A stretch of 64,000 bases of DNA from a virus (IMGVR_UViG_3300034782_000062:1-64000), one strand, 5' to 3'; counted from the stretch's first letter, positions 1 through 59,514 are shown. A program made the numbers and translations. Notes: generated by a model not told the origin, from the sequence alone.

Positions 1-584
1 CTCGCGACAAAGTGCTGCGGATCAAAGTTGCAGCCGCTTCGAAAAACCTCTGGAAGATAGATAACGGCGCCATTGCCACAGATGTCACAAATGGCGTACC
101 TCGTCTTTTCGAGATCACGTTCAACGTGATGCCCCGGAACCCGATAGAGGTGCCCCTTGGACACCTTCATGAGTCTCGGAACGCTGTCCCAGTGACCAAA
201 GCCAGCAGCTCCAACCCTGAAATCACCAAGCTCCCGCTCCAACATCAGGCAAGCCCGCAGCCGATCCCAACCCATCGTCGGAATAACCGTGTCGTCGTCA
301 AGCTTAGACCAAAGATCCGTCTTACATCTTGAGGATGACTCGAAGCAGGGCAGTGAATTTCCAACGTTTTCCGATCGTATCAAGTACCGAAGCTCATAAG
401 AAAATTCCGACCGATCAGGAAGGTCGGGCAGGCGCCCACCGTTGCCTGCTCCCTGAACGACAACTTCGACTCGCAGATCCATGGTCGTCGACTCTTCGAG
501 CGATTGAAGAGCCCCAAGCAGGCACCTTATCGGCCTCAGGGGGTGATGCATAATCAGCGTGGTAATTGATCCCCATACACACAT
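1..584 (-). CDS. Glycosyltransferase family 2, 3'-truncated by the window edge (not in the ORF track)
   Basis: Hand translation gives an open minus-strand frame from ATG 584 (or 551) to position 1: ...ITTLIMHHPLRPIRCLLGAL...DLWSKLDDDTVIP..., a GT-A DxD-type motif. Confidence 0.7.
   Translation of the reverse strand, partial: MCVWGSITTLIMHHPLRPIRCLLGALQSLEESTTMDLRVEVVVQGAGNGGRLPDLPDRSEFSYELRYLIRSENVGNSLPCFESSSRCKTDLWSKLDDDTVIPTMGWDRLRACLMLERELGDFRVGAAGFGHWDSVPRLMKVSKGHLYRVPGHHVERDLEKTRYAICDICGNGAVIYLPEVFRSGCNFDPQHFVA
325..337. repeat. Palindromic motif CRTCYTSARGAYG (CATCTTGAGGATG)
   Basis: Perfect match, intragenic. Confidence 0.8.
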
Positions 585-1540
585 CGCGTTGCCCTCATAA
601 ACCAGTCAGCCCTCGGGTAGTAGGCACCGAAACAGTCAGTACAGGGGAACTGCAACTCGCTTTCGCCCTGAATCATCCCTCGGAGCCACTTCAGGTGCTC
701 CGACTCAGTCCACAGGCCAGGACCGTCATCGAGGTTTCCGTACTCGGCCCTTGGAGGCAGTATCCGGCAACATCCTGTGATGTTGCCAAGCCCATCGACT
801 CCCAACATATTAAAAGGACTCGAACATCCGATTTCACATGTATCTGGAGACCTCACCAGCGTGGGCCAAGTATGAACCGTCAGACCAATGCGAGGAGCCA
901 CCTTCCTAATATCCTCTTCCGCTCGCAAATACTCTGTATCATTCGTCGTCAGGACTCTCGAACGGAACCATTCCGCTTTCTCTTCGCCGTCATGATGGGG
1001 GAGCGTGTTGAAGAAGGCGATGAAGTCGGCCTCCAGGCGCTTGGCGAAATGCATGTACTGCTTCATGCGGCTCCAGTTGTGCTTACCGACGACAAAGGTC
1101 ATTCCAAGCTTGGCGCCTTGCTCCTTGTAGAACTTCGCCGCCTGGATGACACGAGGTAGCCCGTCGACCCCAGTAGTCTCCTGGTAAAGCTCACGGTCGA
1201 TCTCGTTGACCGAAAGCGACACCTGAAGCAATCGAGCCCACGGAACATCGTCTATGTGCTTTTTCCAGGCAAGACCATTGGTGCTCAGAACAACGTTTTT
1301 TCCTCGCTCGAAACAGTAGTTGACCGAATCCGAGAAGCAGGACGCCAACAGCGGTTCTCCGAAGCCTGCTACTGACACACCCGTAATCGAGGGGAACATG
1401 TCGAAGGCCCTTTTCAGGATAGCTGGCGTCACCTCAGGTATCGCCGTTTTCAGTTCCCCGCGCTGTCGACGACAAAATTCGCATTTTAGATTGCATCGCC
1501 CTGTGATGTAGGCGATGAGCTGTATCGGACCAAGATGCAC
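554..1540 (-). CDS. Radical SAM enzyme with C-terminal SPASM/twitch-like domain
   Basis: CNLKCEFC (CxxxCxxC), GFGEP, STNG; C-terminal CSSPF...GNITGCC...CTDC. Confidence 0.9.
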   Translation of the reverse strand: MHLGPIQLIAYITGRCNLKCEFCRRQRGELKTAIPEVTPAILKRAFDMFPSITGVSVAGFGEPLLASCFSDSVNYCFERGKNVVLSTNGLAWKKHIDDVPWARLLQVSLSVNEIDRELYQETTGVDGLPRVIQAAKFYKEQGAKLGMTFVVGKHNWSRMKQYMHFAKRLEADFIAFFNTLPHHDGEEKAEWFRSRVLTTNDTEYLRAEEDIRKVAPRIGLTVHTWPTLVRSPDTCEIGCSSPFNMLGVDGLGNITGCCRILPPRAEYGNLDDGPGLWTESEHLKWLRGMIQGESELQFPCTDCFGAYYPRADWFMRATRCVYGDQLPR

Positions 1541-1592
1541 GAGTGACTCTCCCTGGATTTCCCCATCTTACAGGACGATATTGACAGCCCGG

Positions 1593-2435
1593 TCAGAAAT
1601 CATCGTCAGGCACAAGAACGTCACCCCAGGACTCAGGGTTCCGCACCAGGCTCTGCGATGAGAAGACGATCTTTCGATTTCTCTCCGTCATCTCACTCTC
1701 CCGAGTAGGACTCGCAGGGTGCATGATGTGGATACCCTTGGGGCACCCGAGGTCGAGGAGATGTACCTGCCCGATGGCCCTCTCAGCCCGTGTGGCGAGG
1801 TCGTAGTCTTCGGCACCCCAGCCGTAGAGCCGCTCGTCAAAGCCGTGAGCCTTCTCGAAAAAGGAGCGCGGATAGAAGGCGTTCCCCATGCCGTCACGCC
1901 GACAGTCTAGCCTGTCCGCGAAGAAGCCCCACTCCTCTTCGTTCTGAGCCATCCTCGGGATATCCTCGTCGAACATCCCGATGCCCGGTTCTCCATCACT
2001 TCGAGCCACGGGGACTACTGCCATCTTTCCTTTGTTCAGCACCTGCGCTGCAAAGGAAAAGAGTTTCGGGTGGAAGTAAACATCGCAGTTGAGGCAGGCG
2101 ACGGCCTCTCTCGAACCATGTCGAACGCCGATATTGTAGGCCCTGGCGAGACTAAATGCCGGATCCGTCTCTGGCTTAAAGACGACTGTCGCGTGAAACT
2201 CGGCGCAGAGCGCTCCAAGATCACGAATGGCCCCGCGGCTCTCTCCCTCTTCCATAATGCACGCAACGATGACCTCGTAGTGGTCCTTTGGGTAGTCCTG
2301 AGCATCAATAGATCGAAGGCAGTGCCTCAGGTAGGGCAAGCGCTCAATAACATTGCTAATCGGCACGACAACATCAATCGAGGAGACGAATTTCTCCTCC
2401 TCGACCTCTTCCTCTTTTTTCTCTTCTTCAGACAT
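1593..2435 (-). CDS. Glycosyltransferase family 2 (GT-A fold)
   Basis: IDVVVP, AYNIG, NCDVYF, GFDERLYGWGAEDYDL. Start moved to ATG 2435, which overlaps the upstream stop. Confidence 0.85.
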   Translation of the reverse strand: MSEEEKKEEEVEEEKFVSSIDVVVPISNVIERLPYLRHCLRSIDAQDYPKDHYEVIVACIMEEGESRGAIRDLGALCAEFHATVVFKPETDPAFSLARAYNIGVRHGSREAVACLNCDVYFHPKLFSFAAQVLNKGKMAVVPVARSDGEPGIGMFDEDIPRMAQNEEEWGFFADRLDCRRDGMGNAFYPRSFFEKAHGFDERLYGWGAEDYDLATRAERAIGQVHLLDLGCPKGIHIMHPASPTRESEMTERNRKIVFSSQSLVRNPESWGDVLVPDDDF

Positions 2436-4115: not shown

Positions 4116-5122
4116 CCGACCAGTGCCTCCACGATCTCGTCCCGGCGCTCCTGCTCCCGAGTGATATCGAAGTTGAGGCGCAAGTCCTTGTAGACCGCCT
4201 CCAGTTCATCCAGCTCGCCGAGCTTGGTGCAGTCACCGTCATGCGGCCAGCACTTGTCTCCCTCGCGATACCGAATGCAGTCCTCCCAATACATCCTCCG
4301 GACGGCCTCGTCGAGCTGGTCGCCCATGAGCTTGTTGGCCTCGGTGCGGCCGAGACTCCACACGTACTGCGCGTAGGCGCCGTTGCACTTGATGGGCTGC
4401 GTGTTGACAACGTCGCCGTAGGCCCCACACTCGTACTCGATGATACGAGCCGTGTTCTCGTAGGCCATCATCTGCGAGGCTGCTGCGAGTCGCACGATCA
4501 TATCGGCGTCTTCGAGCTGTCGGCTCCCGTCGAACATTTCGTCCCAGCCGTTGACCTTTCGGAGTGTCTCCATCGGCACCATGGACATCGTACCGCCAAG
4601 AAAGCCTATATCTCTCGCTGGCTTGAGCTTACCTTCACCTTCTTGAATGCCAAGATGCACTCCCCGCTGATCGACGCCAGTGACCCGATCATCTTCCCCG
4701 TCAACACCGAGCACTCGCTTCTCGTAGGCCATGGTGCACCCGGCGCCCTGTTCAGCCCAACCAGCAATGAGTGAAAGAGCGTTCTCTGGGATTACCTGGC
4801 AGTCATCGGTAAAGACGACGTGGGTGCCCGTGGCCATGATGAGCCCAGTGTTCTTCGGTGTTGCGATGCGAAGCAGCCCACGGTCTTTAAAGGGGCTCGA
4901 CTTGTCCGGAGTATGGAGCACAGGGATGGTTTGCCCCATTCGACTGTTGAGAGTGAGCGGCACCTGGCCCTTACGGTCCTTCCAGAGCAGGTCGACGATG
5001 ATCAATTCGACCTCTCCCGAGTAGTCTTGGTTGACGATGGCATTTGTCATCATCCTGAGGACGGAGTCTGGAAGCTGATCATTGTCCTCACGGCAAGTGT
5101 GCATCACTACAGACAGTTTCAT
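4112..5122 (-). CDS. Glycosyltransferase family 2-like (paralog of 5119-6147)
   Basis: KLSVVMHT, ELIIVD, KNTGL, VFTDD, GWDEMFDGSRQLEDAD. Confidence 0.8.
   Translation of the reverse strand: MKLSVVMHTCREDNDQLPDSVLRMMTNAIVNQDYSGEVELIIVDLLWKDRKGQVPLTLNSRMGQTIPVLHTPDKSSPFKDRGLLRIATPKNTGLIMATGTHVVFTDDCQVIPENALSLIAGWAEQGAGCTMAYEKRVLGVDGEDDRVTGVDQRGVHLGIQEGEGKLKPARDIGFLGGTMSMVPMETLRKVNGWDEMFDGSRQLEDADMIVRLAAASQMMAYENTARIIEYECGAYGDVVNTQPIKCNGAYAQYVWSLGRTEANKLMGDQLDEAVRRMYWEDCIRYREGDKCWPHDGDCTKLGELDELEAVYKDLRLNFDITREQERRDEIVEALVG
5051..5063. repeat. Palindromic motif (CATCCTGAGGACG)
   Basis: Perfect match, intragenic. Confidence 0.8.
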
Positions 5123-6147
5123 GGTTTCTCTCCCAGCAGCAGCGGGTCCTCATCGACTGTCTCCCAGGACCGCTCCGCCCTCAGCTCGGCAAGATCAAAC
5201 ACAAGCCGCTCATCCTGGTAAATGTTCATCAGCGAACGACGTTTCCATTCGCCTTGGCACTCGTCCTTGCTAACGGTGCACTCCCCTTTTCCACCGAGCT
5301 TCCAGCAATTACCGAACAGGAAAGAGTGTAGTTGCTCGTCCGTCAGCAGCTTATCATTCGCCCTGATTCGATCCTTGCGCTCATCCCAGAGAGGGTAAAT
5401 GTACGCGCCGTTGCACTTTGTATTGATGCTATGGCGGTAGACCTGAGCATCACAACTGTGCATCGCGAACTCGATGACCTTCGGATGACCTTCGAGCGCC
5501 ATTTTGAGGCCAGTAGCACCCAGGCGCTTGGCCATGTCACTATCTTCGAGCTGTCGACTCCCGTCGAACATCTCGTCCCAGCCGTTGCACTGAACCATGG
5601 TTTCGATTGGCACCATTGAAAGAGTGCCCCCGAGGTAGCCAATGTGCTGAGCATCCACGAGCTTTGTCCTCAGCGTCCCCTCTATCTTATATGCCATCCA
5701 CCTGGAGTCGATCTCTACAGCGCCTCTCCCATTGTCTCTATGCAGCCGACATGTAGCACCTACCCCGGACTTGGCCCAGGTGTAGAGACGACTGAATGCG
5801 TCCTCGGACCAGTCCTGACCGTCGTCGCTAAAGACGACAAATTCCCCCCTCGCGTAGAGGAGCCCAGTGTTTTTTGCAGAGCAGATTCGAGTCAGCATCA
5901 AGTCACGGAAAACGCTGTCTTTGTCGATGATGTGCAGAATTGGAAAGTCGACCTTCTCACGCCATTGATCCATGTAATCGTGGCGATAGTCGCGCATCAG
6001 GTCAACGACGATCAGCTCGAAATCCTTGAAAGTCTGCTTCTGGCAGCTCTCAATGATCTTTCCGAGCACATGCCAGTCGTGATGCCTGAAAGGATAATCC
6101 GGCCGACATGTCGCAACGACTACAGAGAAGAACGGCGTCTCACTCAT
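5119..6147 (-). CDS. Glycosyltransferase family 2-like (paralog of 4112-5122)
   Basis: FSVVVAT, ELIVVD, KNTGL, VFSDD, GWDEMFDGSRQLEDSD. Confidence 0.8.
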   Translation of the reverse strand: MSETPFFSVVVATCRPDYPFRHHDWHVLGKIIESCQKQTFKDFELIVVDLMRDYRHDYMDQWREKVDFPILHIIDKDSVFRDLMLTRICSAKNTGLLYARGEFVVFSDDGQDWSEDAFSRLYTWAKSGVGATCRLHRDNGRGAVEIDSRWMAYKIEGTLRTKLVDAQHIGYLGGTLSMVPIETMVQCNGWDEMFDGSRQLEDSDMAKRLGATGLKMALEGHPKVIEFAMHSCDAQVYRHSINTKCNGAYIYPLWDERKDRIRANDKLLTDEQLHSFLFGNCWKLGGKGECTVSKDECQGEWKRRSLMNIYQDERLVFDLAELRAERSWETVDEDPLLLGEKP

Positions 6148-7937
6148 TTTGCTCCGCGCCTTTTCAGGATAACCAGGTTATTGTGTCCCCACGACGGAAA
6201 CTGGAACCCTGGGTGATTGAACCACTTCTGGAAGATCTCATCGTCGACCTCCCAGTCCTCATCCTCTAGACGACCTTTCCACCAGGGGCGATGCCTGATC
6301 GTGACGTGACCGCTCACCGCTAGCCATTCGAGGTCGTCCGGAATGGGAGCGCCCTTCTTGATGCTGTGGGTGCCCTCGTTGTCTGGAGAGGTGCAGATGT
6401 TCATGACGATGTAGCGCCCAGCGGCGTTCTTCATCGCCTGGATGGCGTCCTCGACGTCCTCCTCGAAGATGTGTTCCATGACGTCGAAAGCCGTCAAGAC
6501 ATCGTATCGCCGGTGTTCGAGGTCGGTGAGCTGACCGACCTTGATATGTTTCTGCACCTCTGGCGTGGCCGCTTCCTTCCAGGCGGCTCTTGAGGAGTCG
6601 ATCCCCTCGGCCTTTACTCCGGAATCGATCATCCTCTTGATGAACCATCCGCGGGCACAGCCAACATCAATCAAAGTCTGAGGACGCATCGTCTGGACGA
6701 CGAGGTCTCTGATGACATTCCAGCCCTCCCAGTCGCCACGGGTGGGGTGGTATACCCGGAAACCCTCTGGAGATTTGTAGACGCGGGCGCCGTAGAAGTA
6801 GGACTCATCGTAGTCGTCAACCCTGAATTCACCCTTCTTCATCCCTCGTTCGAGCCCGAGTCCGTGACCAGCCTCCATGGCGTTCCAGATGGGGCAGAGT
6901 GACTCCAACATGAGCCCCTTTAGGTGCCCGCTGTAGATATTCAGACTTTCCTTGTCGCGATGACGAGTCCTGATGGCGTCATGGGCCATGGCCCCGATCT
7001 CTGCGGGCGGCAAACCCCAGTCGGCAACCCGGTGTCCCTGGCCAGCGTGGTGCATGAAGCCGTTGATCTTGTCGTAGCCGCTGAGCCATGGATAAGTCAC
7101 TGCAAAGCATGGAACACGATTGCCCACCGAGAAGACAAGCGGGTGAAGCCGACCTACGCTGACCACGTGCTCTGCGTGAGCGATAATGTAGGCGAGCTTG
7201 CCTGGGTCCGTCCAGGCGTCCTCGATAATCTTCATGTCGCTACGCGCAGGACCCGACTTCAAGAACTGCTGGTCTGCTGCGCAGAAAGGAAGGACAAAAA
7301 CGTCCTTGACTTCACGTTTCATAGCTGAAAGCAGAGTGTCAGCAATCTTGATCTGCTTCGAGGCATCCCCGTCACGCACCTCACGCACCGCCAGCACCGC
7401 ATAGGGTTTTCGCAGCTCATGTCCTTGGGTGTTCAGTGGGTAGTCGATCGCGAGGTCTGCACCCATGTGTACGCCCTGAATCCCCATGGAGCCAACAACA
7501 TCGAAGCTGGCCCTATCTCGCACGGAAATGTAGTCGAAGATGTTGAGTGACGAACGAACCAAGTCGACGGACTTCGAACCGCCCTTAACAAAGTCGTCCT
7601 TGGCCGACGTTCCAAGCCGAGCGATGAGATTGGCCCGGTTCGACTCCATGGCTTTAACGACCTGGGTCATCCCGTAGATGGCCGAGAGGTCACCGCCGCC
7701 GACGATGACGATGTCAGGCTCCTGAATGGTCTCCATGTCGTAGACGGAAATGATGTTTCGATCGTTGTAGAATGGGTTCTTCTCGTTAACCTTGGCTGCT
7801 GATTCAGGCGACATCTCGGTCGAGAAGAGCAGCTCCACATTGTGAAACGGTCTTCTCAGGTATCGGTCTATAGAACGAGCGATCGCCTCATCACCAGCGT
7901 TGCCATGTCCATAAAAACCCACACAGACGATTTTCAT
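6144..7937 (-). CDS. Polysaccharide pyruvyl transferase-like domain fused to a class I methyltransferase
   Basis: N-terminal GFYGHGNAGDEAI, IVGGGDL, ISVRD, RLHPLV; C-terminal IDVGCARG, YDVLTAFDVMEHI. Start ATG 7937. Confidence 0.85.
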   Translation of the reverse strand: MKIVCVGFYGHGNAGDEAIARSIDRYLRRPFHNVELLFSTEMSPESAAKVNEKNPFYNDRNIISVYDMETIQEPDIVIVGGGDLSAIYGMTQVVKAMESNRANLIARLGTSAKDDFVKGGSKSVDLVRSSLNIFDYISVRDRASFDVVGSMGIQGVHMGADLAIDYPLNTQGHELRKPYAVLAVREVRDGDASKQIKIADTLLSAMKREVKDVFVLPFCAADQQFLKSGPARSDMKIIEDAWTDPGKLAYIIAHAEHVVSVGRLHPLVFSVGNRVPCFAVTYPWLSGYDKINGFMHHAGQGHRVADWGLPPAEIGAMAHDAIRTRHRDKESLNIYSGHLKGLMLESLCPIWNAMEAGHGLGLERGMKKGEFRVDDYDESYFYGARVYKSPEGFRVYHPTRGDWEGWNVIRDLVVQTMRPQTLIDVGCARGWFIKRMIDSGVKAEGIDSSRAAWKEAATPEVQKHIKVGQLTDLEHRRYDVLTAFDVMEHIFEEDVEDAIQAMKNAAGRYIVMNICTSPDNEGTHSIKKGAPIPDDLEWLAVSGHVTIRHRPWWKGRLEDEDWEVDDEIFQKWFNHPGFQFPSWGHNNLVILKRRGAK

Positions 7938-7938
7938 C

Positions 7939-9093
7939 CTACTTCCCCGTCTTCTTTCCTGTGAGCTGCTCGTACAGCTCAATATGCTTCAGTGCAACGT
8001 TCGTCCATGACGTCTCCTCGGCAAATTCCCGACTCCTGCGAGAGAGCTGCCTCCTGACATTCGGGTCACGAACCATCGTGAGGATGTGCGACCTGAGCTG
8101 AGGCATGGACGTGTATTTGAGCGACCTCTTCTCATTGAGATCAGAGAGGAGGCGAGCGTTTGAAGAGATGGAAGGCATGCCAAATGCCATCTCTTGGTGA
8201 GAACGACCAGAGACCGAGAAGAAGGTCTCATGCGATCCTGTAATGACGAAGTCAGAGGCCCCGTACCAAACAGGCAGCTTCTCCCTTGAAACGAAGCTCG
8301 GGACGATCCGAATATAGTTCCAGGCCCTTGCATCGTAGAGGATATTGTGAAGGGCTCGACAGTATTCAATGTTACCCTGATCGTTCTGACCCGGCTCACC
8401 AGCGATGATGTACAAGAATCTCCTCGGATCGAGAAGGCCTTCCTGTACGAGCCAGACAATCGCCTGAACCGCCTCGTGCTGCATCTTTCCGGGGGTAATA
8501 AACCCCAGAGAAATTGCAATGACCAGGTTTGGGTCCTCGGGAAGGAAAAGCTCCCTTCGAGCCTCCATGCGATTCCCAGCCGAGCACTCTTCTGGCGTCC
8601 CATGAGGAATGACGCGGACCTTGTTCGCAGGATGCCTCCACCCCTTGATGAGAGCTGCCCGTGTGCTCTCGTTATGCGCGACAATGGCGTGAGCATCGTT
8701 GAGCACATCCCTGAAGAACCAATGCTTTTCATGAGGCGCTGGCATCACCGTGTGACAGGTAAACACCACAGGGATGCGGAGCGCCTTGATCTTCCCCAGG
8801 AGGTTGATGAGTTGCTTGGCGTGATCGAAAAGCCCGAACTCGTGCTGAAAGTGCACGACCTGGGGTCTCGTGCTCTTTAAAAATTGAAAGATTCCATCGA
8901 GGGATCCGATTCGTCCATCCCAGCAGCGGTCGAAGGCTATTCTCGACTCGACGCTTATCTCCTTGATCCCAATGAGATTCTCGGCTGCGCACTCGCAGTC
9001 TGGCCCATGATCCATGATGGCCTTTACGAGCTGATCAGTGTAGGTCGCGATCCCGCACTGAACTCCCCACCTCGACACAAAAGCGACCTTCAA
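7939..9093 (-). CDS. Glycosyltransferase family 4 (GT-B)
   Basis: CGIATY, HFQHEFGLF, TCHTV, VIPHG, LGFITPGK. Likely TTG start at 9093 overlapping the upstream TGA. Confidence 0.85.
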   Translation of the reverse strand: MKVAFVSRWGVQCGIATYTDQLVKAIMDHGPDCECAAENLIGIKEISVESRIAFDRCWDGRIGSLDGIFQFLKSTRPQVVHFQHEFGLFDHAKQLINLLGKIKALRIPVVFTCHTVMPAPHEKHWFFRDVLNDAHAIVAHNESTRAALIKGWRHPANKVRVIPHGTPEECSAGNRMEARRELFLPEDPNLVIAISLGFITPGKMQHEAVQAIVWLVQEGLLDPRRFLYIIAGEPGQNDQGNIEYCRALHNILYDARAWNYIRIVPSFVSREKLPVWYGASDFVITGSHETFFSVSGRSHQEMAFGMPSISSNARLLSDLNEKRSLKYTSMPQLRSHILTMVRDPNVRRQLSRRSREFAEETSWTNVALKHIELYEQLTGKKTGK

Positions 9094-13687: not shown

Positions 13688-13700
13688 CATCCTCAGGATG
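13688..13700. repeat. Palindromic motif (CATCCTCAGGATG)
   Basis: Perfect match, intergenic. Confidence 0.8.
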
Positions 13701-44325: not shown

Positions 44326-44378
44326 AGACTACGTTCGTCCTGAGGACGATGTCAAGCGTATTTAACGTCTTCAAGACG
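44326..44378 (-). promoter_or_regulatory. Promoter TTGACA-N18-TAGTCT with two CRTCYTSARGAYG palindromes (44336-44348 in the spacer, 44366-44378 upstream)
   Basis: Read from the sequence in the intergenic gap before the core/capsid operon. Confidence 0.7.
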
Positions 44379-49402: not shown

Positions 49403-49405
49403 GGA

Positions 49406-50762: not shown

Positions 50763-50780
50763 TTTAAATGTTTAACCTCT

Positions 50781-51464: not shown

Positions 51465-51472
51465 GTCACACC

Positions 51473-51811
51473 TCACACAACGAAGGGAACGAGCGAGAAC
51501 GCTCTACCAATACCGTCCGCATAGGCGAACGTCGGCCCAATCGCCGGCCATGGGGCCAGCATATTCGGGTACATCGGCTCACTTCTAAGCTTGTTGTAAA
51601 GAGCAAAGCCGACGGCACCAACCGCCATCGCAAGAGCGACCTTTACCCAAAAATTGAACCGAGTCGCCTGATCCGTCACCATAGACGCCGTCTGCGTGAC
51701 CTGGTCTCCGTTCGTTCCCATTCCCTGAGGAAGGAGAGGTCGAGCAGGATTGTAGGGAACGAGGGTGCTCAGAGGAGAGAGCTGTCGACCCTTCGTCGTG
51801 TAGATGTACAT
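51473..51811 (-). CDS. MYIY...GMGTNG leader small TM protein
   Basis: TGATG coupling at 51809-51813. Confidence 0.65.
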   Translation of the reverse strand: MYIYTTKGRQLSPLSTLVPYNPARPLLPQGMGTNGDQVTQTASMVTDQATRFNFWVKVALAMAVGAVGFALYNKLRSEPMYPNMLAPWPAIGPTFAYADGIGRAFSLVPFVV

Positions 51812-52293
51812 CAGTATCCCTCCAGCTCCATCTCCTCCTGGCGATTCTTCGCCCATCGCCAGACGAGATATCCACCGATACCCATGACACCCACCGTCAC
51901 TAGGACGGTTCCGATGCCCATGCCGATACCGGCGCCCGCTGCGGTTGCAGCAGCAGGGATCATGGACGCCGCCACCTGCTGTCCATCTCTGGGTGCAGGA
52001 ATCGCTGCTGCTCGGGCCAGCTCAGCGTCGAGGACTCCAGGCGGGCAGCAGTAGAAAACTCCCTGGTTACCCTCATCGGTATAGCAGTGGTGGTTTCCTT
52101 GGAAGCCAACTGTTCTACATCCGATGCGCTGCAAGTATTGAATCTCGGCGGAGCGACCACAGATGAGGTCACTGCTCGGGTCCATTGGGTTCGCGGCTGG
52201 ACCTGAGCACGTTTGCTGAGAGAAACGATGTTCCTGACCTGGAACGGTAAAACCACCGGTCCAGCCAAGGCCTTGACGGGCTCTTGTATACAT
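51811..52293 (-). CDS. MY..GLG leader, CCP domain, TM
   Basis: FYCCPPG; ATG 52293. Confidence 0.75.
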   Translation of the reverse strand: MYTRARQGLGWTGGFTVPGQEHRFSQQTCSGPAANPMDPSSDLICGRSAEIQYLQRIGCRTVGFQGNHHCYTDEGNQGVFYCCPPGVLDAELARAAAIPAPRDGQQVAASMIPAAATAAGAGIGMGIGTVLVTVGVMGIGGYLVWRWAKNRQEEMELEGY

Positions 52294-52712
52294 CAGAATT
52301 GACCTCTTCTTTCTCGCTCCTCTTCCATTTTTGCTGTGACATAGGAGCCGATCATGATGATGCCGACGAGACCGACACCGGCAGCGGCCCATGGAAGCCA
52401 TGCTGGAGTCTGACCGTTTCCTGTGACTCGGGGAACGACAGAGGCGACCTGCTGCGCCACTCCCTGTTGTTGGGGAATTGTCATCCTCTGAGCGACCCAG
52501 GGCCAGCTCTGGAGAACGAAATCCCAACCGCGGCGCTCCGCGAGACAACGAGTACCCGCCTCGGTCTCTGAGCCCCATCGGCTGTCGCGGCCAAACCGCG
52601 GAAGAGAACAGCCGTTTTCGAGTATGGCACTCTGAATGGAACCAACCTGCTCCTCAGGCTCTGTTCCCAGGCCCATCATGCCCCGACGACTTCTGGTGGT
52701 GTACTCGTACAT
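52293..52712 (-). CDS. MYEY-MMGLG leader, PG-binding domain, TM
   Basis: SIQSAILENGCSLPRFGRDSRWGSETEAGTRCL. Confidence 0.8.
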   Translation of the reverse strand: MYEYTTRSRRGMMGLGTEPEEQVGSIQSAILENGCSLPRFGRDSRWGSETEAGTRCLAERRGWDFVLQSWPWVAQRMTIPQQQGVAQQVASVVPRVTGNGQTPAWLPWAAAGVGLVGIIMIGSYVTAKMEEERERRGQF

Positions 52713-52721
52713 GACGACCTC

Positions 52722-53519
52722 CTAATATCCGAGCGCGGCCAGCTCAGCCTCTTCCAGCTCGGCTTCTTCTTCCTCGCCCCTCTTGTAGAGGTAGTATCCG
52801 CCGGCTGCGAGAAGACCAACGCCTCCGAGAATGGCGAGCCAGCCCCACCAAGGCATTCCGCCAGGAACGATGCCAGCCTGCTGAATAGCAGGAGCACCCG
52901 GGGCGCCTGTCGTGGTGGTTGCTGCAGCTCCTCCGCTTGCATAGCGAACGCCGCCCTGTTCAGGGGTCTTCGACCCGGTCGCACCGGGGTCAAAGATCAT
53001 TCCGGATGGACGAGCCGCTCCGGAAGGATCGGCCATCAGTGTGCTGAGGAACGGGAAGCGCCCGGCCACGTTGGTCCAGCTCGTCTGGCCCACTGCGCAT
53101 TCGACACCACTGCGCGTGTTCGGCCCCCAGACACCATCAGCACCCGTTGAGCCGACAGAACAGCCTTGCTGGACAAGCCAGTTCTGCATCTGACGAATCT
53201 GATCACGGCTCACTGCCTGCTGGACGATCGTGCTGGGCTCTCCGGCACCAGGGCGCCCTGGCGGACAGCACCAGGTGTTTCCAGAAGCTCCCGATGATGT
53301 TCGGCAAGCCCCGGTGCCACCTCCCTGCTCAGGATACGTGACCTGGCACCCCTGGCTCACCATGAAGCCCTGTTCGCCGGTAGTAGCACAGGCAATCGTG
53401 CCACCTCCCTCACAAGGGATGCTCCGAGCGATTTCCCGACTCATCGGGATTTCCCAGTTGTACGACCACCCGAGCGCTCCCATGCCCAAACCACCGGGCT
53501 TCCTTACATATTCGTACAT
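52722..53519 (-). CDS. MYEY-GGLGMGALG leader, CCP domain, PG-binding domain, TM
   Basis: WCCPPGRP; QMQNWLVQQGC...GADGVWGPNT. Confidence 0.8.
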   Translation of the reverse strand: MYEYVRKPGGLGMGALGWSYNWEIPMSREIARSIPCEGGGTIACATTGEQGFMVSQGCQVTYPEQGGGTGACRTSSGASGNTWCCPPGRPGAGEPSTIVQQAVSRDQIRQMQNWLVQQGCSVGSTGADGVWGPNTRSGVECAVGQTSWTNVAGRFPFLSTLMADPSGAARPSGMIFDPGATGSKTPEQGGVRYASGGAAATTTTGAPGAPAIQQAGIVPGGMPWWGWLAILGGVGLLAAGGYYLYKRGEEEEAELEEAELAALGY

Positions 53520-53541
53520 TTTTAGCTCCTACTCTTTGCCC

Positions 53542-54405
53542 TTAGTATCCGAGCGCGGCCAGCTCAGACTCTTCACGCAGCACGTCTTCTTCCTCTCCCT
53601 TTCGGTAAAGGTAAAGACCACCCAGCGCGAGAGCGCCGACGCCTCCGAGCAGGCCCATCCAGCCCCACCAAGGCATGCCACCCGCGACCATTCCGGCCTG
53701 AGTGACCGGTGTTGTCCCCGGTGTGGTTCCAGTGCTTGCCACACGACCACCAGGGATGATGGTCTGGCCCGCAGCAACCTGCTCCGGTGTCTTTGTTCCC
53801 ACAACAGGAGGCTGAAAAACGAAGTCTGCAGGACGCGCCTGTCCGGTTGGAGTCTGCCTCATCGTGGCGACGAAGGGGAAGTTCGCAGCGATCACAGTCG
53901 CGTTCCCCTGAGCCTCAGCACACCGAACGGCCGTCGCTGTATCAGGACCCCAGATTCCATCGATGCCGTGTGTGCCGACAGAACAGTTGATGGACTCCAG
54001 CCACTGCTGAAGCTCACGAATGTCAGCACGGGACGCTCCAGCCTGAGTCACAGCCGCGCCCTCACCCGGCGTTGCACGGGGGCGACCAGGAGGACAACAC
54101 CAGACCAAGCCAGCGTTTGCCTCCGTCGTTGGACCTGTACCCGTGAAGCAAATTCGAGTGGAACCGCCCAGTTCGGTGTCGAGGTTCATGGGCCTGCAGC
54201 CTTCATTGGCCATGAAGGTGCTTTCTGCTGTTCGACCACAGGTCACGGTCCCTGAGCCATCCGGCGTTTGACACGAAGGGCCACGGAATGTCTGACCAAA
54301 TGAGGTAAAGGTGGGCATCCAGCCCAAACCGCCCGGGACGGGAACGTATTCGTGGCTGTTCTTCGAAGCGCCCAAACCGCCCGGCCTTCTTACGTACTCG
54401 TACAT
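53542..54405 (-). CDS. Duplicated leader (MYEY..GGLG / HEY..GGLG), CCP domain, PG-binding domain, TM
   Basis: Close paralog of 52722-53519 with the same ELAALGY C-terminus. Confidence 0.8.
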   Translation of the reverse strand: MYEYVRRPGGLGASKNSHEYVPVPGGLGWMPTFTSFGQTFRGPSCQTPDGSGTVTCGRTAESTFMANEGCRPMNLDTELGGSTRICFTGTGPTTEANAGLVWCCPPGRPRATPGEGAAVTQAGASRADIRELQQWLESINCSVGTHGIDGIWGPDTATAVRCAEAQGNATVIAANFPFVATMRQTPTGQARPADFVFQPPVVGTKTPEQVAAGQTIIPGGRVASTGTTPGTTPVTQAGMVAGGMPWWGWMGLLGGVGALALGGLYLYRKGEEEDVLREESELAALGY

Positions 54406-54409
54406 GGTT

Positions 54410-54676
54410 TCACTCTCCTCTTCTCTTCGTGAGGTAGTAAGAAAGGCCCAGCGCAGCCACCGCGCCGAGGCCAAACCAGAACAGACCCGACGACGTAAAT
54501 GGGCCTGATACATTCGTCGTTGCTTGCACAGGTGGCTGAGAAGGGATCGCCTGGCTCTGAGCCTGAATCTGCTGCGCCCCTTGCTGGACCTGTGATGCAG
54601 TTTCCATGGCCTGTGCCACGATGAAGTCAGTGATCTGGTCGATGTTCTCCGCCGTCTGTTGGAAGTTGTTCGACAT
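54410..54676 (-). CDS. Small Gln-rich C-terminally anchored membrane protein
   Basis: ATG 54676; TM LFWFGLGAVAALGL. Confidence 0.65.
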   Translation of the reverse strand: MSNNFQQTAENIDQITDFIVAQAMETASQVQQGAQQIQAQSQAIPSQPPVQATTNVSGPFTSSGLFWFGLGAVAALGLSYYLTKRRGE

Positions 54677-54678
54677 GA

Positions 54679-55050
54679 TCAATCCTTCGTCAGAAAAACT
54701 GTTATCGCCAAGACCGACGTCACAATGCTCGCACCTATGGCGATCTTCATGAGGCGCTGTGCACGTTCCAGCTCGGCTCGCGTTTCCTGAGCCTCCTGCA
54801 CCAGCTCCTGAGGCCGCTGCTGAAGCCAGCTCATCCACTCGCTGACGTTGAGCCCTGAGGACTCAGTACCCCCATCAGTCCCGAGCGCCGAGGTCACAGC
54901 ATACTGACGCTCACCCATGTGCCTCGGGTAGACCCACATCCGCCTACCAGAAACTGGGTTGATGAGCAGGTAGTAATCGCCAGGCTTCACGTGCGGCCTG
55001 ACAAAATACATCGGGACGCTGACTGGTTTTCGTGCAAGCTTCGATGCCAT
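54679..55050 (-). CDS. C-terminally anchored membrane protein
   Basis: ALGTDG; terminal TM. Start 55050 or 55011. Confidence 0.6.
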   Translation of the reverse strand: MASKLARKPVSVPMYFVRPHVKPGDYYLLINPVSGRRMWVYPRHMGERQYAVTSALGTDGGTESSGLNVSEWMSWLQQRPQELVQEAQETRAELERAQRLMKIAIGASIVTSVLAITVFLTKD

Positions 55051-55059
55051 CGGCTGCTC

Positions 55060-55527
55060 CTACTCTTCTTCTCGATACTTCTTGATGAGCATCTGAATAC
55101 CAAGAGCTGCAGCCGCCCCCGCACCCAGCCAGAAGAGCTTGGCGCCGAACGTTGTTCCCTGCTGAGCAGGCGCCTCCGTGGTGCCCATGCTCGGCCCCTC
55201 CAGGACGATGCCGTAGGAGGACGACCCCGGATAGAGCGGACGACCCGGACGTCTGAGCATATTCCACTGCATGTCCGGTGCAGCAACCTCGTAGTCATAT
55301 CGAGCATAGTCATCGAAGAAAATGCCAGTGTTGCTCGGCGGTTCAGTGTCGCCGCTGAAGATCCCGTTGTCTTCGCCCTCGTAGCCGAAGATTCCGCTTC
55401 CGATCACCTTCGGGAGTCGGCCAGTCGGCGCGGCACCGTTGATGACATTGACGCCCTTGAATCCAAGGCGCTGGCGGTACCTTTCCTCACGGGGCGGAGC
55501 TTTTACGATGCTCTTTGGTGGTGCCAT
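55060..55527 (-). CDS. C-terminally anchored membrane protein with three GIF motifs
   Basis: SGIFG, NGIFS, TGIFF; TM LFWLGAGAAAALGI. Confidence 0.65.
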   Translation of the reverse strand: MAPPKSIVKAPPREERYRQRLGFKGVNVINGAAPTGRLPKVIGSGIFGYEGEDNGIFSGDTEPPSNTGIFFDDYARYDYEVAAPDMQWNMLRRPGRPLYPGSSSYGIVLEGPSMGTTEAPAQQGTTFGAKLFWLGAGAAAALGIQMLIKKYREEE

Positions 55528-55535
55528 TGTTCCCT

Positions 55536-56069
55536 CTAATCCTTTTTCCGAGTCAGCAGCCAAATGCCAACGATCCCGAACGTCAGCACCAAGCCCCCTA
55601 TCACGATGTAGGGGACATATGACCTCTGTGGCTGAACCACGAGGGGAGCCGCAGTCGATGTTGGAGAAGGCGTTTCTTCTGACGCCGCCTCTCCCTCATC
55701 CGCTGAAGCTGTCGTTGACTGAGCTGGTGCAGGAGTTGTCGTCGTTGGAGCGCCCTTTCCGCTGGGCGCTGGAGCTGCCCCAGTCGGCGTTGCGCCGCTT
55801 GGCTGCTTTCCACCGGGCGCTCCAGTTGAAGACCCCGTAACCTCAGTCGCCGTATTGCTCGCAAACTGCTGAGCGAGCCCGGAGAACAGATTAGCGATCC
55901 CCGAGTAGATGCTTGTATCGCCCGAAGACTCCCTACCACCCTGAAGCTCTGGCGGCATCGGACGAAGACCCATTCCAGCGGACACCAGATCCTCTGGCGT
56001 CGCGAAATCCATGTCTGGGTTATCGATGTCGCCGTTCGTCCCCAGGCCAGTCATATACTCGTAAGACAT
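55536..56069 (-). CDS. MSYEY-MTGLGTNG leader, Thr/Pro/Ala stalk, TM
   Basis: Shares its TM with 56070-56732. Confidence 0.75.
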   Translation of the reverse strand: MSYEYMTGLGTNGDIDNPDMDFATPEDLVSAGMGLRPMPPELQGGRESSGDTSIYSGIANLFSGLAQQFASNTATEVTGSSTGAPGGKQPSGATPTGAAPAPSGKGAPTTTTPAPAQSTTASADEGEAASEETPSPTSTAAPLVVQPQRSYVPYIVIGGLVLTFGIVGIWLLTRKKD

Positions 56070-56732
56070 CTACTTTTTCCTCACGAGCAACCAAATACCG
56101 ACACCAGCGAAACCGAAGACAAGCAGCCCTCCGACGATGTAAGGAGCGATCGTTGACCCGACAGAAGGCATAGGAGCTGTTACAGCAGCGGGCGAAGGAC
56201 CAGGAGGAGGAAGGGTTTCCGTGGCTGCTGCAGCACCCGCGCCGGGAACCATCACCTGACCTGTGAGGTTGGCCGCGGTTTCCATGGCAACGCCCTGTGC
56301 CTCTTGATTTGCCTGACCCCCGATACCAAGTTTCGTTGCGACCGTCTCAAACATCGCACCGACGTCGGTAGGCCACCACGTCTGCTTTTCTGCTGTTGGG
56401 GCCGGTTCACCTGCTGCTGTTGCCGGAGCACCAGTAGTAGGGCACGAAGCCCCTACCAAGCGCTCATATTGTGAAAAAGCTGGGTCGCTGGAAAATCGAG
56501 AACGAAATCCATCGAGAACGCGACGCGCCTCATCACATCGATTCGCACGAGCAAGAGCCTGTGCTCGACGTAGAGCGTAGTTCTGAGGAGTTGCCGGGTC
56601 TTCGCGCTCCGCTTGTTCCAGAAGACGAATTGCTTCTGAGTAGTTCCCTGAATCGTAAGCGGTGCGTGCCTGCGCAGAGAGTCTTTCCGCCTCCTCGACG
56701 GTCCCCATCCCGGTCATATATTCGTAAGTCAT
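56070..56732 (-). CDS. MTYEY-MTGMG leader, TPR domain, stalk, TM
   Basis: ARTAYDSGNYSEAIRLLEQA...AQALARANRCDEARRVL. Confidence 0.75.
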   Translation of the reverse strand: MTYEYMTGMGTVEEAERLSAQARTAYDSGNYSEAIRLLEQAEREDPATPQNYALRRAQALARANRCDEARRVLDGFRSRFSSDPAFSQYERLVGASCPTTGAPATAAGEPAPTAEKQTWWPTDVGAMFETVATKLGIGGQANQEAQGVAMETAANLTGQVMVPGAGAAAATETLPPPGPSPAAVTAPMPSVGSTIAPYIVGGLLVFGFAGVGIWLLVRKK

Positions 56733-56740
56733 GATTCTAC

Positions 56741-57370
56741 CTAGTCTTTCTTCCTTATGACCAGCCAAACAAGGAAGGTTCCGAGGCCGATCGCCGTCGA
56801 GGCCAGTGTGATATGGGTCTGGTATCGCTCTATCCAGGTCTGTTCTTCGGCAGCTTGCTGGCCGGCAGAGTCCGGAGGAGTCTCCTCAATAGGGAGAACC
56901 TCGTTCTCGGCGGCTGCGCCTGTACGAAGAGCCGCTTCCTGTGCATACGTCGCAAAGCCCTGGGCAGTGGGCTTGTTTGCGCCTGTGCCACCTGGCATAG
57001 GGGCCGCTGGAACCTGTTGACCTGTAGGCATACCAATGGCTCCCTTGACCCAATCGACGATACCCCCTGTATCCTGAGATGGGGCAGCCCCTGGCTGAGC
57101 CGCTACGGTCGACTCTTCTTCTTCTCTGACAGCTTCGCCGAGGATAAGAGTAGGAGTGGATGGACAGCAGTAATGCTGACACGCCTCGTTCAGCCTTCCG
57201 ACCTGACCAGTGTCACTGGGTATCTCAACACAGCTCATTCGACTGGCGGTGGATGCCTCTCTCGGCCTGAAACAACGTTTCTGACCCGTCACAGAGCCCT
57301 GCGTACAAGCTCCTCTTGGGTCCGAAAATCCGAGAGAACCCAAGCCAGGACCGTAGTAATGATAGGACAT
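56741..57370 (-). CDS. MSYHY-GLGSLG leader, CCP domain, stalk, TM
   Basis: HYCCPS. Confidence 0.75.
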   Translation of the reverse strand: MSYHYYGPGLGSLGFSDPRGACTQGSVTGQKRCFRPREASTASRMSCVEIPSDTGQVGRLNEACQHYCCPSTPTLILGEAVREEEESTVAAQPGAAPSQDTGGIVDWVKGAIGMPTGQQVPAAPMPGGTGANKPTAQGFATYAQEAALRTGAAAENEVLPIEETPPDSAGQQAAEEQTWIERYQTHITLASTAIGLGTFLVWLVIRKKD

Positions 57371-57378
57371 CGTTTACC

Positions 57379-57870
57379 TTAATCCTTCATCTTGGAGACG
57401 AGCCACACGCCGCCGATGACAACCCCTGTCACTCCGACTCCAACGACAGCCCAGACCCACATGGGAGTAGGCCGACTCCCTCCAAATGTTCCACCGACGC
57501 GGGCTTGAGCCTCGCGAGCGAACGCAGCCGCTTGTTCACGGCTGATCTCTTCAGCAAGTTCCCGCTCCTGTGCGGAATACTCACTCGCGATGCCTCTACG
57601 AGCCTCGTTGATAGCATCACGCTCAGCGTTCGCTCTTTCATCGAAATACTGTTGCCTTGCCATGTCGTCGAGCATCGACGACATTCCGGATTCGCGCCCC
57701 TCAGCGTAGGCACCCTGCTGGTAACGAATCTGGTCGATGGTGTTGATCGCACCAAAGATCGCACCGACCGTACTTCCAACAGCGCCAGCGGCTGCACTGG
57801 CGTAGTCTCCGGCCGTCGTTCCCATGCCGACATCGCCCCCATCAGGGGCACCTACGAAGACGAAGCTCAT
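57379..57870 (-). CDS. GMG leader, coiled coil, TM
   Basis: DVGMGTT; amphipathic helix; TM. Confidence 0.7.
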   Translation of the reverse strand: MSFVFVGAPDGGDVGMGTTAGDYASAAAGAVGSTVGAIFGAINTIDQIRYQQGAYAEGRESGMSSMLDDMARQQYFDERANAERDAINEARRGIASEYSAQERELAEEISREQAAAFAREAQARVGGTFGGSRPTPMWVWAVVGVGVTGVVIGGVWLVSKMKD

Positions 57871-57879
57871 CGAAGCCGC

Positions 57880-58770
57880 CTACTCCTCTTCGTCTTTCTT
57901 CTTGGACATGTACCAGAACACGCCACCGACGCCGCCTGCGAGAACGAGCGCGAGAAAAATCCAAACGACCGGTGAGGTACCCTGCTGAGTGACGATCGGA
58001 GCCGCTGTCGTTGACGGCGCAGACGACACAGCAGCTTCCGTCTCACGAAGAGCCCGAAGCTCTTCTGCACGCTGCGACAGCTCCTCAAGACGAAGCTCAT
58101 GCTCCTGCTGACGGGCGAGCTGCTCGGTCTGGAACGCCATGTCACGAGCCTCAGACTCAGCTTCCATTTGCTCGCGACGAAGCTGAGCTTCCAGCTCCAT
58201 CTCGGCCTCCGCTCGCTGATGACCCGTGACCGTTGTGGCGATACCGACTCCCAGCTCAGAGAGCGGAGCCAGGATAGAGCCGATGCCTTCCATGATTCCG
58301 CCAGCTCGTGATCCGTTGGTACCCATCCCCATGTCGCCGTCGTTGCCCATGCCGCCGCCATACAATCCGCTCGGGCCGATCGAAGGTCCATAGGTGACGT
58401 AAGTGCCAGGCTGCACCCTTCGAGCAGCTCGGCCACCAACATTCACCACTGGAGAACCAGCGGCTCTTTGCGCTGCTTCACCGTTCATGGCGAAGCGGGC
58501 GCCATTCTCCATGTCGTAGTAGTACATCTGCCCACCTTTATCTCCATTGCCCCTTCGAATTGGAGCTGATTCCGCACCAAGAGTCGCAGCCTGTTGAAAC
58601 CTCGGCCGCTGAGGCACAACGCGGCGAACGGGGCGGCGGGGTGCCTGAACATGCGGAGCAGCACTCACATCTTCTTCGACGGTGCCGACGTATTCAACAT
58701 CGTCATCGTTTCCATTTCCGTTTGCTCCGTAGCTTGTCATGTCTTCATCAAGAGCATCCCACTCGCTCAT
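57880..58770 (-). CDS. Membrane protein with internal GMGN/GMGTNG, coiled coil and TM
   Basis: First gene after the transglutaminase-like enzyme; tail KKKDEEE. Confidence 0.7.
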   Translation of the reverse strand: MSEWDALDEDMTSYGANGNGNDDDVEYVGTVEEDVSAAPHVQAPRRPVRRVVPQRPRFQQAATLGAESAPIRRGNGDKGGQMYYYDMENGARFAMNGEAAQRAAGSPVVNVGGRAARRVQPGTYVTYGPSIGPSGLYGGGMGNDGDMGMGTNGSRAGGIMEGIGSILAPLSELGVGIATTVTGHQRAEAEMELEAQLRREQMEAESEARDMAFQTEQLARQQEHELRLEELSQRAEELRALRETEAAVSSAPSTTAAPIVTQQGTSPVVWIFLALVLAGGVGGVFWYMSKKKDEEE

Positions 58771-58787
58771 CGTTTCCTCCGACGTTT

Positions 58788-59423
58788 TCAGTCGCTTGAC
58801 TCATAGATCCTGTATTGCTTGACTCGCTGATGCATCCGCGGGGTTCGAGGTCCAGCGACCGGGTCGACTGTCACCCAACCACCACTCCCCTTCGCCGCCT
58901 GAGCGAAGACATGAGTGAATGGTCCAGGAAGCCTTGGATGCGGTGATGACATCAGACGAAAGGCGGGGTCCTCAAACAGCCTTGGATTCGGCGATTTACC
59001 GTTCGTCGGACGAAATCCGACGGTGACTATTCGACTTCTCCCACCGATTGAACCAATTGAGGCTCTCAAGAACGTAGCAAACTCATCGCAGTCGATGAGC
59101 GTCGAGCCGTAGTTGTCGATCTCCCACAAGATTCGCAGAGGATCCTTGACCTGCTCGACCTTTCGAGGGTCTCGCGTGTACCGGAACTGCGGGCCACATG
59201 TCCAGTAGTAAACCGCAAGGATTTCGCTCCAGTAATCTCGGGGACGAACGTATCGAATGATATCTTCGACTCGCTCACGAAGAGCGAACGACTTCTGACC
59301 GCGCTCACCGTCAGCAATGCGGAACATCTCACGCACTGTTTGCGGAGTTCCGCGGTATTTCATCACATTTACGGTCTGGTTTCCGGCCACCGGCCACACT
59401 CCGGCTTTAAAAATACCTGCCAA
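58788..59423 (-). CDS. Transglutaminase-like (papain-fold) Cys-His-Asp enzyme, candidate maturation protease
   Basis: FRYTRDP, IDCDEFA (Cys), FTHVFAQ (His), WVTVDP (Asp). TTG start as called by the ORF track. Confidence 0.8.
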   Translation of the reverse strand: MAGIFKAGVWPVAGNQTVNVMKYRGTPQTVREMFRIADGERGQKSFALRERVEDIIRYVRPRDYWSEILAVYYWTCGPQFRYTRDPRKVEQVKDPLRILWEIDNYGSTLIDCDEFATFLRASIGSIGGRSRIVTVGFRPTNGKSPNPRLFEDPAFRLMSSPHPRLPGPFTHVFAQAAKGSGGWVTVDPVAGPRTPRMHQRVKQYRIYESSD

Positions 59424-59470
59424 ATTTGACGCCGGGGCCGGCTTATACGTCTGACAGGAGGGTCGCTTTA

Positions 59471-59514
59471 GAAGTACATCATATTAAGTTTAAATGTCAA
59501 GCGTCTTGAGGATG
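59471..59514 (-). promoter_or_regulatory. Promoter TTGACA-N18-TACTTC abutted by the palindrome CGTCTTGAGGATG (59502-59514)
   Basis: Intergenic. Shares ACGCTTGACAT (11 bp) with the 44350 promoter; the -10 is weak. Confidence 0.55.

Follow-up and report, generated by a model that had tools for sequence, protein, structure and literature searches.

Among described systems of dispersed short DNA sites, the closest to the element analysed here are the stoperators of Cluster A phages (L5 gp71 type) and the OB operators of the plasmid protein KorB. The element is a 13-bp palindrome (CRTCYTSARGAYG; 11-bp core RTCYTSARGAY) that recurs throughout IMGVR_UViG_3300034782_000062, a virus record of 182,770 bp that is rated 95% complete and is of the large tailed-phage type. 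The window, by which we mean the whole stretch of DNA that was initially annotated, comprises bases 1-64,000 of this record; positions beyond 64 kb refer to the full genome. The enrichment of the palindrome in this phage genome and its relatives is genuine, and it is both robust and conserved within the clade; we propose that the copies probably constitute the operator network of one dimeric, sequence-specific protein predicted to bind double-stranded DNA in a stoperator- or KorB-operator-like manner.

The consensus of the Cluster A stoperators drifts between related phages, the operator co-evolving with the repressor (PMC6550527), and each site is an asymmetric sequence that binds a repressor monomer and follows the direction of transcription (PMC9283540, PMC6550527). 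The element resembles them in its length of 13 bp and in its tens of copies, few of which are located in promoters and many at gene junctions. It differs from them in being a palindrome with independent half-sites, in that genes contain two thirds of its palindromic copies, in either orientation, and in residing on a genome that is about 3.5 times larger. No repressor of the gp71 type was found, although no search was aimed at one. The symmetry of the site places it outside the stoperator family.

KorB of RK2 is a CTP clamp that silences promoters from a distance, and its OB core, TTTAGCGGCTAAA, is a 13-bp palindrome of the 6+1+6 type with a central G/C (PMC11790492). The phage element shares with the sites of KorB and of other orphan ParB-CTPase regulators (Noc, VirB, BisD) the 6+1+6 geometry and the dispersal of copies at, near and far from promoters, and the phage encodes a protein with a predicted ParB/Noc/KorB fold. 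RK2 has about a dozen KorB sites, whereas there are approximately 70-114 sites here; the phage further differs in that neither a ParA/IncC- nor a KorA-like partner was found and in a GRxR rather than a GERR box in its ParB-like protein. A third system, the HIP1 word (GCGATCGC) of cyanobacteria, is a short palindrome that is hyper-abundant in genes and spacers and is selected without positional conservation (PMC5861425). HIP1 is 8 bp long, cellular and of a function that is not known, while the present element is 13 bp long, phage-borne and placed at promoters in the manner of an operator. Repeated short elements before gene starts, or stem-loops with a signal at variable early-gene junctions, also occur as the start-associated sequences of Cluster K phages and the T4-type PeSL cassettes, but these are asymmetric and intergenic, and they are not known to occur inside genes or at structural-gene promoters as well. 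Very little is known about how genes are regulated in phages that are huge and uncultivated, and here one short DNA word appears to organise a 183-kb programme.

Abundance and symmetry of the 13-bp element

The window contains 10 perfect 13-mers and 19 cores, whereas dinucleotide shuffling yielded a mean of 0.09 perfect copies (maximum 1) and an expectation of 0.89 cores (maximum 3). All ten perfect matches of the initial annotation were recovered at exactly the same coordinates, as were its nine additional core copies, position 27515 being the start of a core whose 13-mer begins at 27514. The full genome contains 30 perfect 13-mers and 68 cores. Together with a sister form in which the centre is CCA/TGG, these belong to a family, CRTCY-N3-RGAYG, with 114 copies genome-wide, or about one per 1.6 kb. 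When the inner RTCY-N3-RGAY sites of the genome were sorted by their centres, TGA (37), TCA (31), CCA (32) and TGG (14) were followed by a long tail. The family consensus is C-R-T-C-Y-[TSA or CCA/TGG]-R-G-A-Y-G, with the outer positions favouring C and G, and is exemplified by CGTCCTGAGGACG and CGTCCCCAGGACG. In an unbiased k-mer scan TCCTSAGGA and TCCCCAGGA/TCCTGGGGA stood out with equal frequencies, and the only other outliers were a CRISPR repeat and one small second palindrome. The interval from 46.7 to 59.5 kb had been described as free of cores; this holds for the strict core (46,700-59,502), but three copies of the sister form are located there, at 47381, 48372 and 57388.

Codon-preserving shuffles had been suggested beforehand as a control for this enrichment, and the excess persisted under them. 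Coding sequences contained 43 cores, compared to 7.2 expected (maximum 14 in 300 trials) when synonymous codons were shuffled within genes with amino acids kept, and 2.3 (maximum 7) when codon order was shuffled. Similarly, 17 perfect 13-mers were located in coding sequences, with expectations of 1.7 and 0.2 under the two schemes, respectively. The intragenic copies occurred in both orientations and in frames 0 (n=24) and 2 (n=16), frame 1 being rare because it creates TGA, and they encode many different peptides such as xPED, xPQD and [IV]L[KR][TMI]. The motif is thus a nucleotide-level signal and not a by-product of coding, and codon choice and, to a degree, amino-acid choice are bent to carry it; indeed, it appears to be strong enough to have shaped these choices in dozens of genes. 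The higher expectation under the synonymous than under the codon-order shuffle (7.2 versus 2.3) shows that the amino-acid sequence carries part of the excess, as it would if the repeats had no function and merely reflected composition, codon usage, a repeated peptide or a mobile repeat. We find this hardly credible, given an excess of 6- to 85-fold under every null model, the many peptide contexts in two frames, and an enrichment that recurs independently in relatives at non-orthologous places. Moreover, the sequences flanking the 13 bp are unrelated among copies, indicating that the copies are not pieces of a larger repeat.

The spacing of the two half-sites was strictly maintained. Inverted RTCY-N3-RGAY arrangements with a gap of 3 were found in 179 pairs, compared to 31-60 pairs at each other gap between 0 and 10, whereas everted and direct arrangements were flat with no enriched gap. 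The half-sites occurred as ATCC (53), GTCC (45), GTCT (27) and ATCT (11), and the pair counts matched the products of these frequencies, as for independent draws. About three quarters of the palindromic copies have a position at which pairing is possible on just one of the strands or on none, and for copies with a one-strand wobble the strand able to pair was unrelated to gene direction. The predicted folding energies were -4.9 kcal/mol for CGUCCUGAGGACG but only -0.4 for the common CAUCCUGAGGACG and -1.8 for CAUCUUGAGGAUG, and a T-run was located beside 11 of the 114 copies, compared to 4.2% of random positions. With folds as weak as -0.4 to -1.8 kcal/mol, no sense-strand bias and few T-runs, the copies did not have the hallmarks of RNA hairpins or intrinsic terminators. 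Taken together, the strict geometry, the independent halves, the non-folding copies and the absence of strand bias point to a symmetric protein on duplex DNA rather than to a hairpin or terminator. Two half-sites, C-R-T-C-Y-T, would face each other across one central base and be bound by a dimer. A single-strand hairpin had also been considered on the basis of wobble covariation (1 conflicting copy versus 7 expected), but was dropped because the rarity of the ATCT half-site explains the scarcity of conflicting copies.

Placement at promoters and early gene junctions

About 20% of the genome is non-coding. Of the copies with a TSA centre, 45 were located in coding sequences and 23 outside, while those with CCA/TGG were divided into 21 and 25. 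According to our own gene calls, 7 of the 19 window cores are outside or at the edge of coding sequences (centres at 331, 13694, 21096, 31865, 44342, 44372 and 59508). The copy at 38704 is inside a 228-amino acid (aa) open reading frame (ORF) that is conserved in relatives and is hence not an intergenic-promoter site.

Several of the intergenic copies are located at TTGACA-type promoter candidates. Upstream of a gene for an 1171-aa protein, one 13-mer ends 10 nt upstream of a perfect TTGACA (44350-44355) and a second is inside the 18-nt spacer that precedes TAGTCT (44326-44331); the two copies thus bracket the -35 box, as had been noted previously. The copy at 59.5 kb, between a 909-aa gene and the downstream gene array, likewise abuts a -35 box as annotated. 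In a divergent region at 64.08-64.13 kb, two copies 28 bp apart occupy the spacer and position +8 of a TTGACA-17-TACTTT promoter that heads the leftward gene block. A copy within -75 to +30 was present at 6 of 18 intergenic promoter candidates of this type, compared to about 2.3 expected by our own estimate from the intergenic density, and the positions of the copies were -60, -54, -51, -24, -20, -1, 0 and +8. Close pairs of copies were spaced by 24-33 bp. Sites in the spacer between the -35 and -10 boxes or over the start site would be in repressor positions, whereas those at about -43 to -60 would be in activator or co-repressor positions. Genome searches with PF00562 and PF04542 gave no match to a phage RNA polymerase or sigma domain; a search with PF00940 was uninformative in that no control genome matched either.

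A different palindrome, ATAGCA-N2-TGCTAT, fills the spacer of a TTGACA-17-TACCAT promoter on the minus strand of the window (16041-16069), and a related word, TAGCATATG, has 9 copies genome-wide. These look like a second, small operator set. The 1171-aa protein itself (window 40717-44232, minus strand) had no match to a Pfam or PHROG family, and its homologs, which are 34-57% identical with one at 99%, were found only in metagenome assemblies.

The sister form is concentrated at 64-83 kb, ahead of early genes on the plus strand. These early copies immediately precede the ribosome-binding site, the centre of the CCA form being 21-23 nt from the start codon, and a strong GC-rich hairpin is located about 10 nt upstream of them. 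CCA was on the sense strand in a ratio of 19:2 for intergenic and 9:12 for intragenic copies, while no orientation can be defined for the symmetric form. The motif had been described as a feature of late genes, which is contradicted by the early region being the site of its densest cluster. A protein bound to this one-base variant at nearly every gene junction of the early operon could block the elongating RNA polymerase in the manner of stoperators, and the dozens of copies kept inside genes could allow it to cover or silence the whole genome. With one 13-mer and a short list of candidate proteins, the motif offers a concrete, testable handle on switching between early and structural genes or on prophage silencing. 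Of the earlier proposal, a protein-binding site used for late-gene control, genome organisation or packaging, the protein site is supported by the inverted-repeat geometry, the independent halves, the conserved promoter placement and the survival of the excess under codon shuffling, whereas no link to packaging was found.

As side observations, each of the early spacers (68-77 kb, and in the relatives L014, L015 and L016) contains a GC-rich hairpin of 10-15 bp with a loop that is often CUUUCG-like. These hairpins end in ..GGG-ACCA followed by the 13-mer, and their stems covary freely between copies. At 68.1-69.4 kb, 13-mers are found in tRNA-like contexts with GGTTCGA words resembling a T-loop.

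Some of these data weigh against an operator network. The -10 elements of the putative promoters are weak (TAGTCT, TACTTT), and none of the candidates described here was picked up by a stricter sigma-70 scan of 38-47 kb, whose threshold their -10 boxes do not reach. A fixed location 5' of the Shine-Dalgarno sequence and after a large hairpin is natural for an RNA signal but is not needed for a roadblock on DNA. The intergenic early copies are also co-oriented within each genome (19:2 here), which for a DNA site needs an extra assumption, such as homogenised intergenic cassettes or polar roadblocks.

The precise location of the early copies beside ribosome-binding sites keeps alive a role at the RNA level, which we regard as unlikely. 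Here, the 13-mer would be a stem-loop or RNA-protein site that sets translation, stabilises the 5' end after processing at a tRNA-like hairpin or marks a cleavage site. In the early region of this genome as well as in the relatives L014, L015, L021, L022 and L027, the element immediately precedes AGGAG at 20-24 nt from the start codon, with a strong GC-rich hairpin about 10 nt upstream; its best copies fold at -4.9 kcal/mol, early intergenic copies share their orientation within a genome, and some are in the tRNA-like contexts at 68.1-69.4 kb. However, two of every three palindromic copies are located inside genes, where both orientations occur and the pairable variants are not biased to the sense strand. 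The frequent variants do not fold, and in L027 a G is opposite a G at the fifth pair. Contrary to what is usual for RNA hairpins, it is the arm sequence that is conserved, whereas the loop varies freely or is inverted from one genome to another. In addition, a copy ahead of a -35 box is not part of the transcript that starts at that promoter.

The element could alternatively tell an unrecognised phage RNA polymerase where to start or stop, serve as its promoter, or be a single-strand DNA hairpin signal of the N4 type, to be read at each early gene and at scattered internal positions. The promoters of the N4 virion polymerase are hairpins, which the 5-bp arms and 3-nt centre of the present element resemble: an N4-type hairpin, with its 5-7 bp and loop of 3 nt, is similar in geometry, but the arms of the present element frequently lack complementarity. 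Nearly every early gene has one copy after a terminator-like hairpin, and two giant ORFs (1617 and 1460 aa) are without family assignment. On the other hand, neither PF00562 nor PF04542 had a match, the palindrome is directionless, the element is inverted relative to the genes between relatives, the ribosome-binding site begins 2-3 nt after the element, which leaves scant room for a start site, and the conserved TTGACA boxes favour the host polymerase. A dedicated polymerase signal is in our view very improbable.

Related phages and the candidate binding protein

Syntenic relatives, denoted here by numbers with the prefix L, were retrieved from metagenome assemblies using the AAA ATPase, the 1171-aa protein and the ParB-like protein (5-sequence alignment). 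Searches of phage records (tblastn with the 1171-aa protein) and of IMG/VR viral contigs (a motif scan and two scans with the AAA protein) gave no useful relative. All sequencing runs that held the phage were labelled wetland metagenome, and no RNA run was listed among them. Compared with Markov-2 simulations, palindromic cores were in large excess in L015 (13 observed, 0.12 expected), L021 (9 versus 0.2) and L017 (8 versus 0.26), as were the CCA/TGG form in L014 (11 versus 0.23) and sites with any centre in L016 (28 versus 5.7). L020, in which the AAA protein is 51% identical, had 0 palindromic cores where 0.20 were expected.

The initial annotation had named a lack of conservation in related genomes as grounds for refutation, and this applies in part: the overall enrichment and the copies at promoters were conserved, but intragenic positions mostly were not. 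The two-site TTGACA layout at 44.3 kb was also present in L017, where the downstream protein is 57% identical and the half-site variants are different, and a one-site version was found in L018 (42% identity). The 59.5-kb copy was kept in place in L015 and L014, and the pair spaced by 28 bp in the divergent region was found in L021. In contrast, intragenic copies were mostly missing at orthologous codons, those kept being 46694 (in L017), 71785 and 71925 (in L016) and 76494 (in L015). The relatives hold intragenic copies of their own, for example 6 of the 8 copies in L017 by called genes, indicating that positions turn over while density is maintained. The earlier comparison to matS and Noc sites is best taken as an analogy only. 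A comparison with the strain L019 (JGI 3300034988 contig, 43 kb), which comes from another metagenome and is 99.7% identical over 13 kb to the window at 40.4-53.5 kb, had no power, since the 0 differences observed in 65 site positions compare to an expectation of only about 0.2.

The early module of hairpin, 13-mer and ribosome-binding site was identified in L014, L015, L016, L021/L025, L022 and L027. The centre on the sense strand is CCA in the phage studied here, TGG in L014, TGA in L015, TCA in L021 and free in L016. The element is thus inverted relative to transcription between genomes, which makes no difference to a dimer on double-stranded DNA, whereas it would to an RNA signal. L022 and L027, which are more distant, have S in place of Y as the inner arm base, giving CGTC[C/G]T-S-A[G/C]GACG and CATC[G/C]T-S-A[C/G]GATG. 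The half-sites of these two genomes also vary independently and are often unable to pair, many of the L027 copies having a G opposite a G at the fifth pair. In that the arm sequence is kept, inversion and a free centre are tolerated and the consensus drifts with lineage, the element behaves as an operator co-evolving with a phage-encoded protein. The lineage-specific changes across the clade provide a natural series for studies of regulator-operator co-evolution.

The variable surroundings of the early copies could suggest some other DNA transaction, such as junctions for the recombinational shuffling of cassettes, targets for nicking or modification, or loading sites for compaction or partition without regulation. 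The early copies do mark gene junctions in a region of variable gene content among relatives, and copies inside genes are gained and lost rapidly at a maintained density. The phage also has genes for a tyrosine recombinase, a ParB-fold protein and a methyltransferase fused to a ParB N-terminal domain. Yet the cores of tyrosine-recombinase sites have overlaps of 6-8 bp, not 1-3, a ParA partner is missing, and GANTC, the target of the CcrM-like methyltransferase family, does not occur in the motif. The conserved, operator-like placement at promoters would also be left unexplained, and we consider such a transaction improbable.

If the copies are operators, the most concrete candidate for their binder is an early 351-aa orphan protein of the ParB/Noc/KorB fold encoded at 78,898-79,953, for which they would be loading sites like those of KorB at OB. 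This assignment is possible without being probable. The protein matched PF17762 (HTH_ParB; 2.4e-11), TIGR00180 (1.2e-6) and the Spo0J structure 1vz0 in the PDB (2.7e-5), and is the sole HTH_ParB match in the genome. Its fold was predicted with a local distance difference score (pLDDT) of about 85-95 over residues 10-230, and comparison of the model to known structures with Foldseek identified ParB, Noc (E 2e-9), Spo0J (TM 0.75) and KorB (7.5e-7). The alignment keeps G86, R87, R89, N130 and R133 of the CTP motifs (GERRxR and ENxxR), the first box reading GRxR instead of GERR, and the protein has a lysine-rich tail. No AAA_31 match indicative of a ParA/IncC-type ATPase was obtained in the genome, whereas all control genomes matched, and a KorA-like partner was not found in the genome.

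There are also data that speak against this candidate. This phage and the L021/L025 phage share the motif but have different recognition helices, the 18 kb of L020 contain no motif despite the presence of a ParB-like gene, and no ortholog was seen from two large ENA contigs. The helix type (..QLLKL/..NYLKL versus ..NWLKL) appears to pair with the inner motif base (Y versus S), but in a few nested lineages, and this covariation is weak and confounded by phylogeny. The initial annotation had pointed to a protein with four helix-turn-helix (HTH) motifs and to an XRE protein, both encoded in the window. The former is a 414-aa protein at 18,407-19,651 with several HTH repeats; in comparison, the ParB-fold protein outside the window appears to be at least as good a candidate. 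Pfam scans of ten proteins encoded just downstream of copies revealed no DNA-binding candidates.

More speculatively, an orphan CTP clamp of the ParB type might load at the approximately 100 sites, among them those at every early gene junction and those kept by selection within genes, and slide or spread from them to silence, time or physically organise the 183-kb genome, while operator and protein evolve together within a clade of wetland phages that are uncultivated. We regard this scenario as rather doubtful. Were it correct, it would amount to global regulation of the KorB kind on the scale of a virus, and if the ParB-fold protein is the binder, clamp-based long-range silencing would extend from plasmids to viruses.

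Sites in the window and other genome features

The sites in the window are listed in Table 1.

Table 1. Copies of the 13-bp element and its sister form in the window.
Feature	Position	Strand	Context
Perfect 13-mer CATCTTGAGGATG	325-337		3' edge of called ORF
Perfect 13-mer	5051-5063		Intragenic, 5' part of 336-aa gene
Perfect 13-mer	13688-13700		Intergenic; centre 44 nt before start of 98-aa gene (minus strand)
Perfect 13-mer	16087-16099		Centre at about -60 of putative promoter TTGACA-17-TACCAT (hexamers 16064-16069 and 16041-16046, minus strand)
Core copy	16780-16792		Intragenic
Core copy	21090-21102		Covers -35 position of putative extended -10 TGGTATACT (21071-21079, minus strand); 51 nt before start of 166-aa gene
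Perfect 13-mer	21792-21804		Intragenic
Core copy	23128-23140		Within glycosyltransferase gene
Core copy	24937-24949		Intragenic
Two core copies, centres 24 bp apart	27490-27526		Intragenic
Core copy	31859-31871		Gene boundary
Core copy	33741-33753		Gene 3' end, 29 nt before next start; not at orthologous place in L017, L018
Sister form CATCCCCAGGACG	34776-34788		Intragenic
Core copy	36461-36473		Intragenic; relatives without it
Perfect 13-mer	38704-38716		Within 228-aa ORF 38228-38914
Putative two-operator promoter of 1171-aa gene	44326-44378	-	13-mers 44366-44378 and 44336-44348
Perfect 13-mer	46688-46700		3' end of 134-aa gene, 44 nt before start of 250-aa gene; kept at orthologous place in L017
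Sister form CATCCCCAGGATG	47381-47393		37 nt before next start
Sister form CGTCCCCAGGATG	48372-48384		Intragenic
Sister form CATCTTGGAGACG	57388-57400		24 nt before next start
Perfect 13-mer (59502-59514) and TTGACA (59495-59500)	59495-59514	-	13-mer one base upstream of TTGACA
Sister form CGTCCTGGGGACG	62111-62123		5' part of 909-aa gene; relatives without it

The second most over-represented words in the genome derive from a CRISPR array at 84,210-84,930, which consists of 10 repeats of 37 nt (GTCACAAAGGCTATCTCTACAGCCTATGAGTAGAGAC) and is located downstream of a 578-aa ORF (82,410-84,146). One of these words, CTCTACTCATAGG, was considered as a T7-type promoter and rejected since it is the CRISPR repeat. 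The repeat had no match in a species-genome collection.

The methyltransferase fusion combines a ParB N-terminal domain with a CcrM-like N6/N4 DNA methyltransferase (PF02195 and PF01555) and is encoded on the minus strand at 100,911-102,479. The tyrosine recombinase gene (134,430-134,957, minus strand; Phage_integrase, E 2e-25) is also on the minus strand; the phage may be temperate, or the recombinase may be used for dimer resolution. The two giant ORFs are adjacent, at 122,578-131,872, and the 1460-aa product had no PHROG match. A sugar-modifying cluster in the window (6144-10316 and 22507-24006) encodes a fusion of a pyruvyl-transferase with a methyltransferase and several glycosyltransferases of the GT1/GT4 types. 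The genome also encodes a helicase, and its 31 tRNA genes are clustered at about 166-183 kb together with a transfer-messenger RNA (tmRNA) that has the tag peptide VNTDNYHEAPLARAA.

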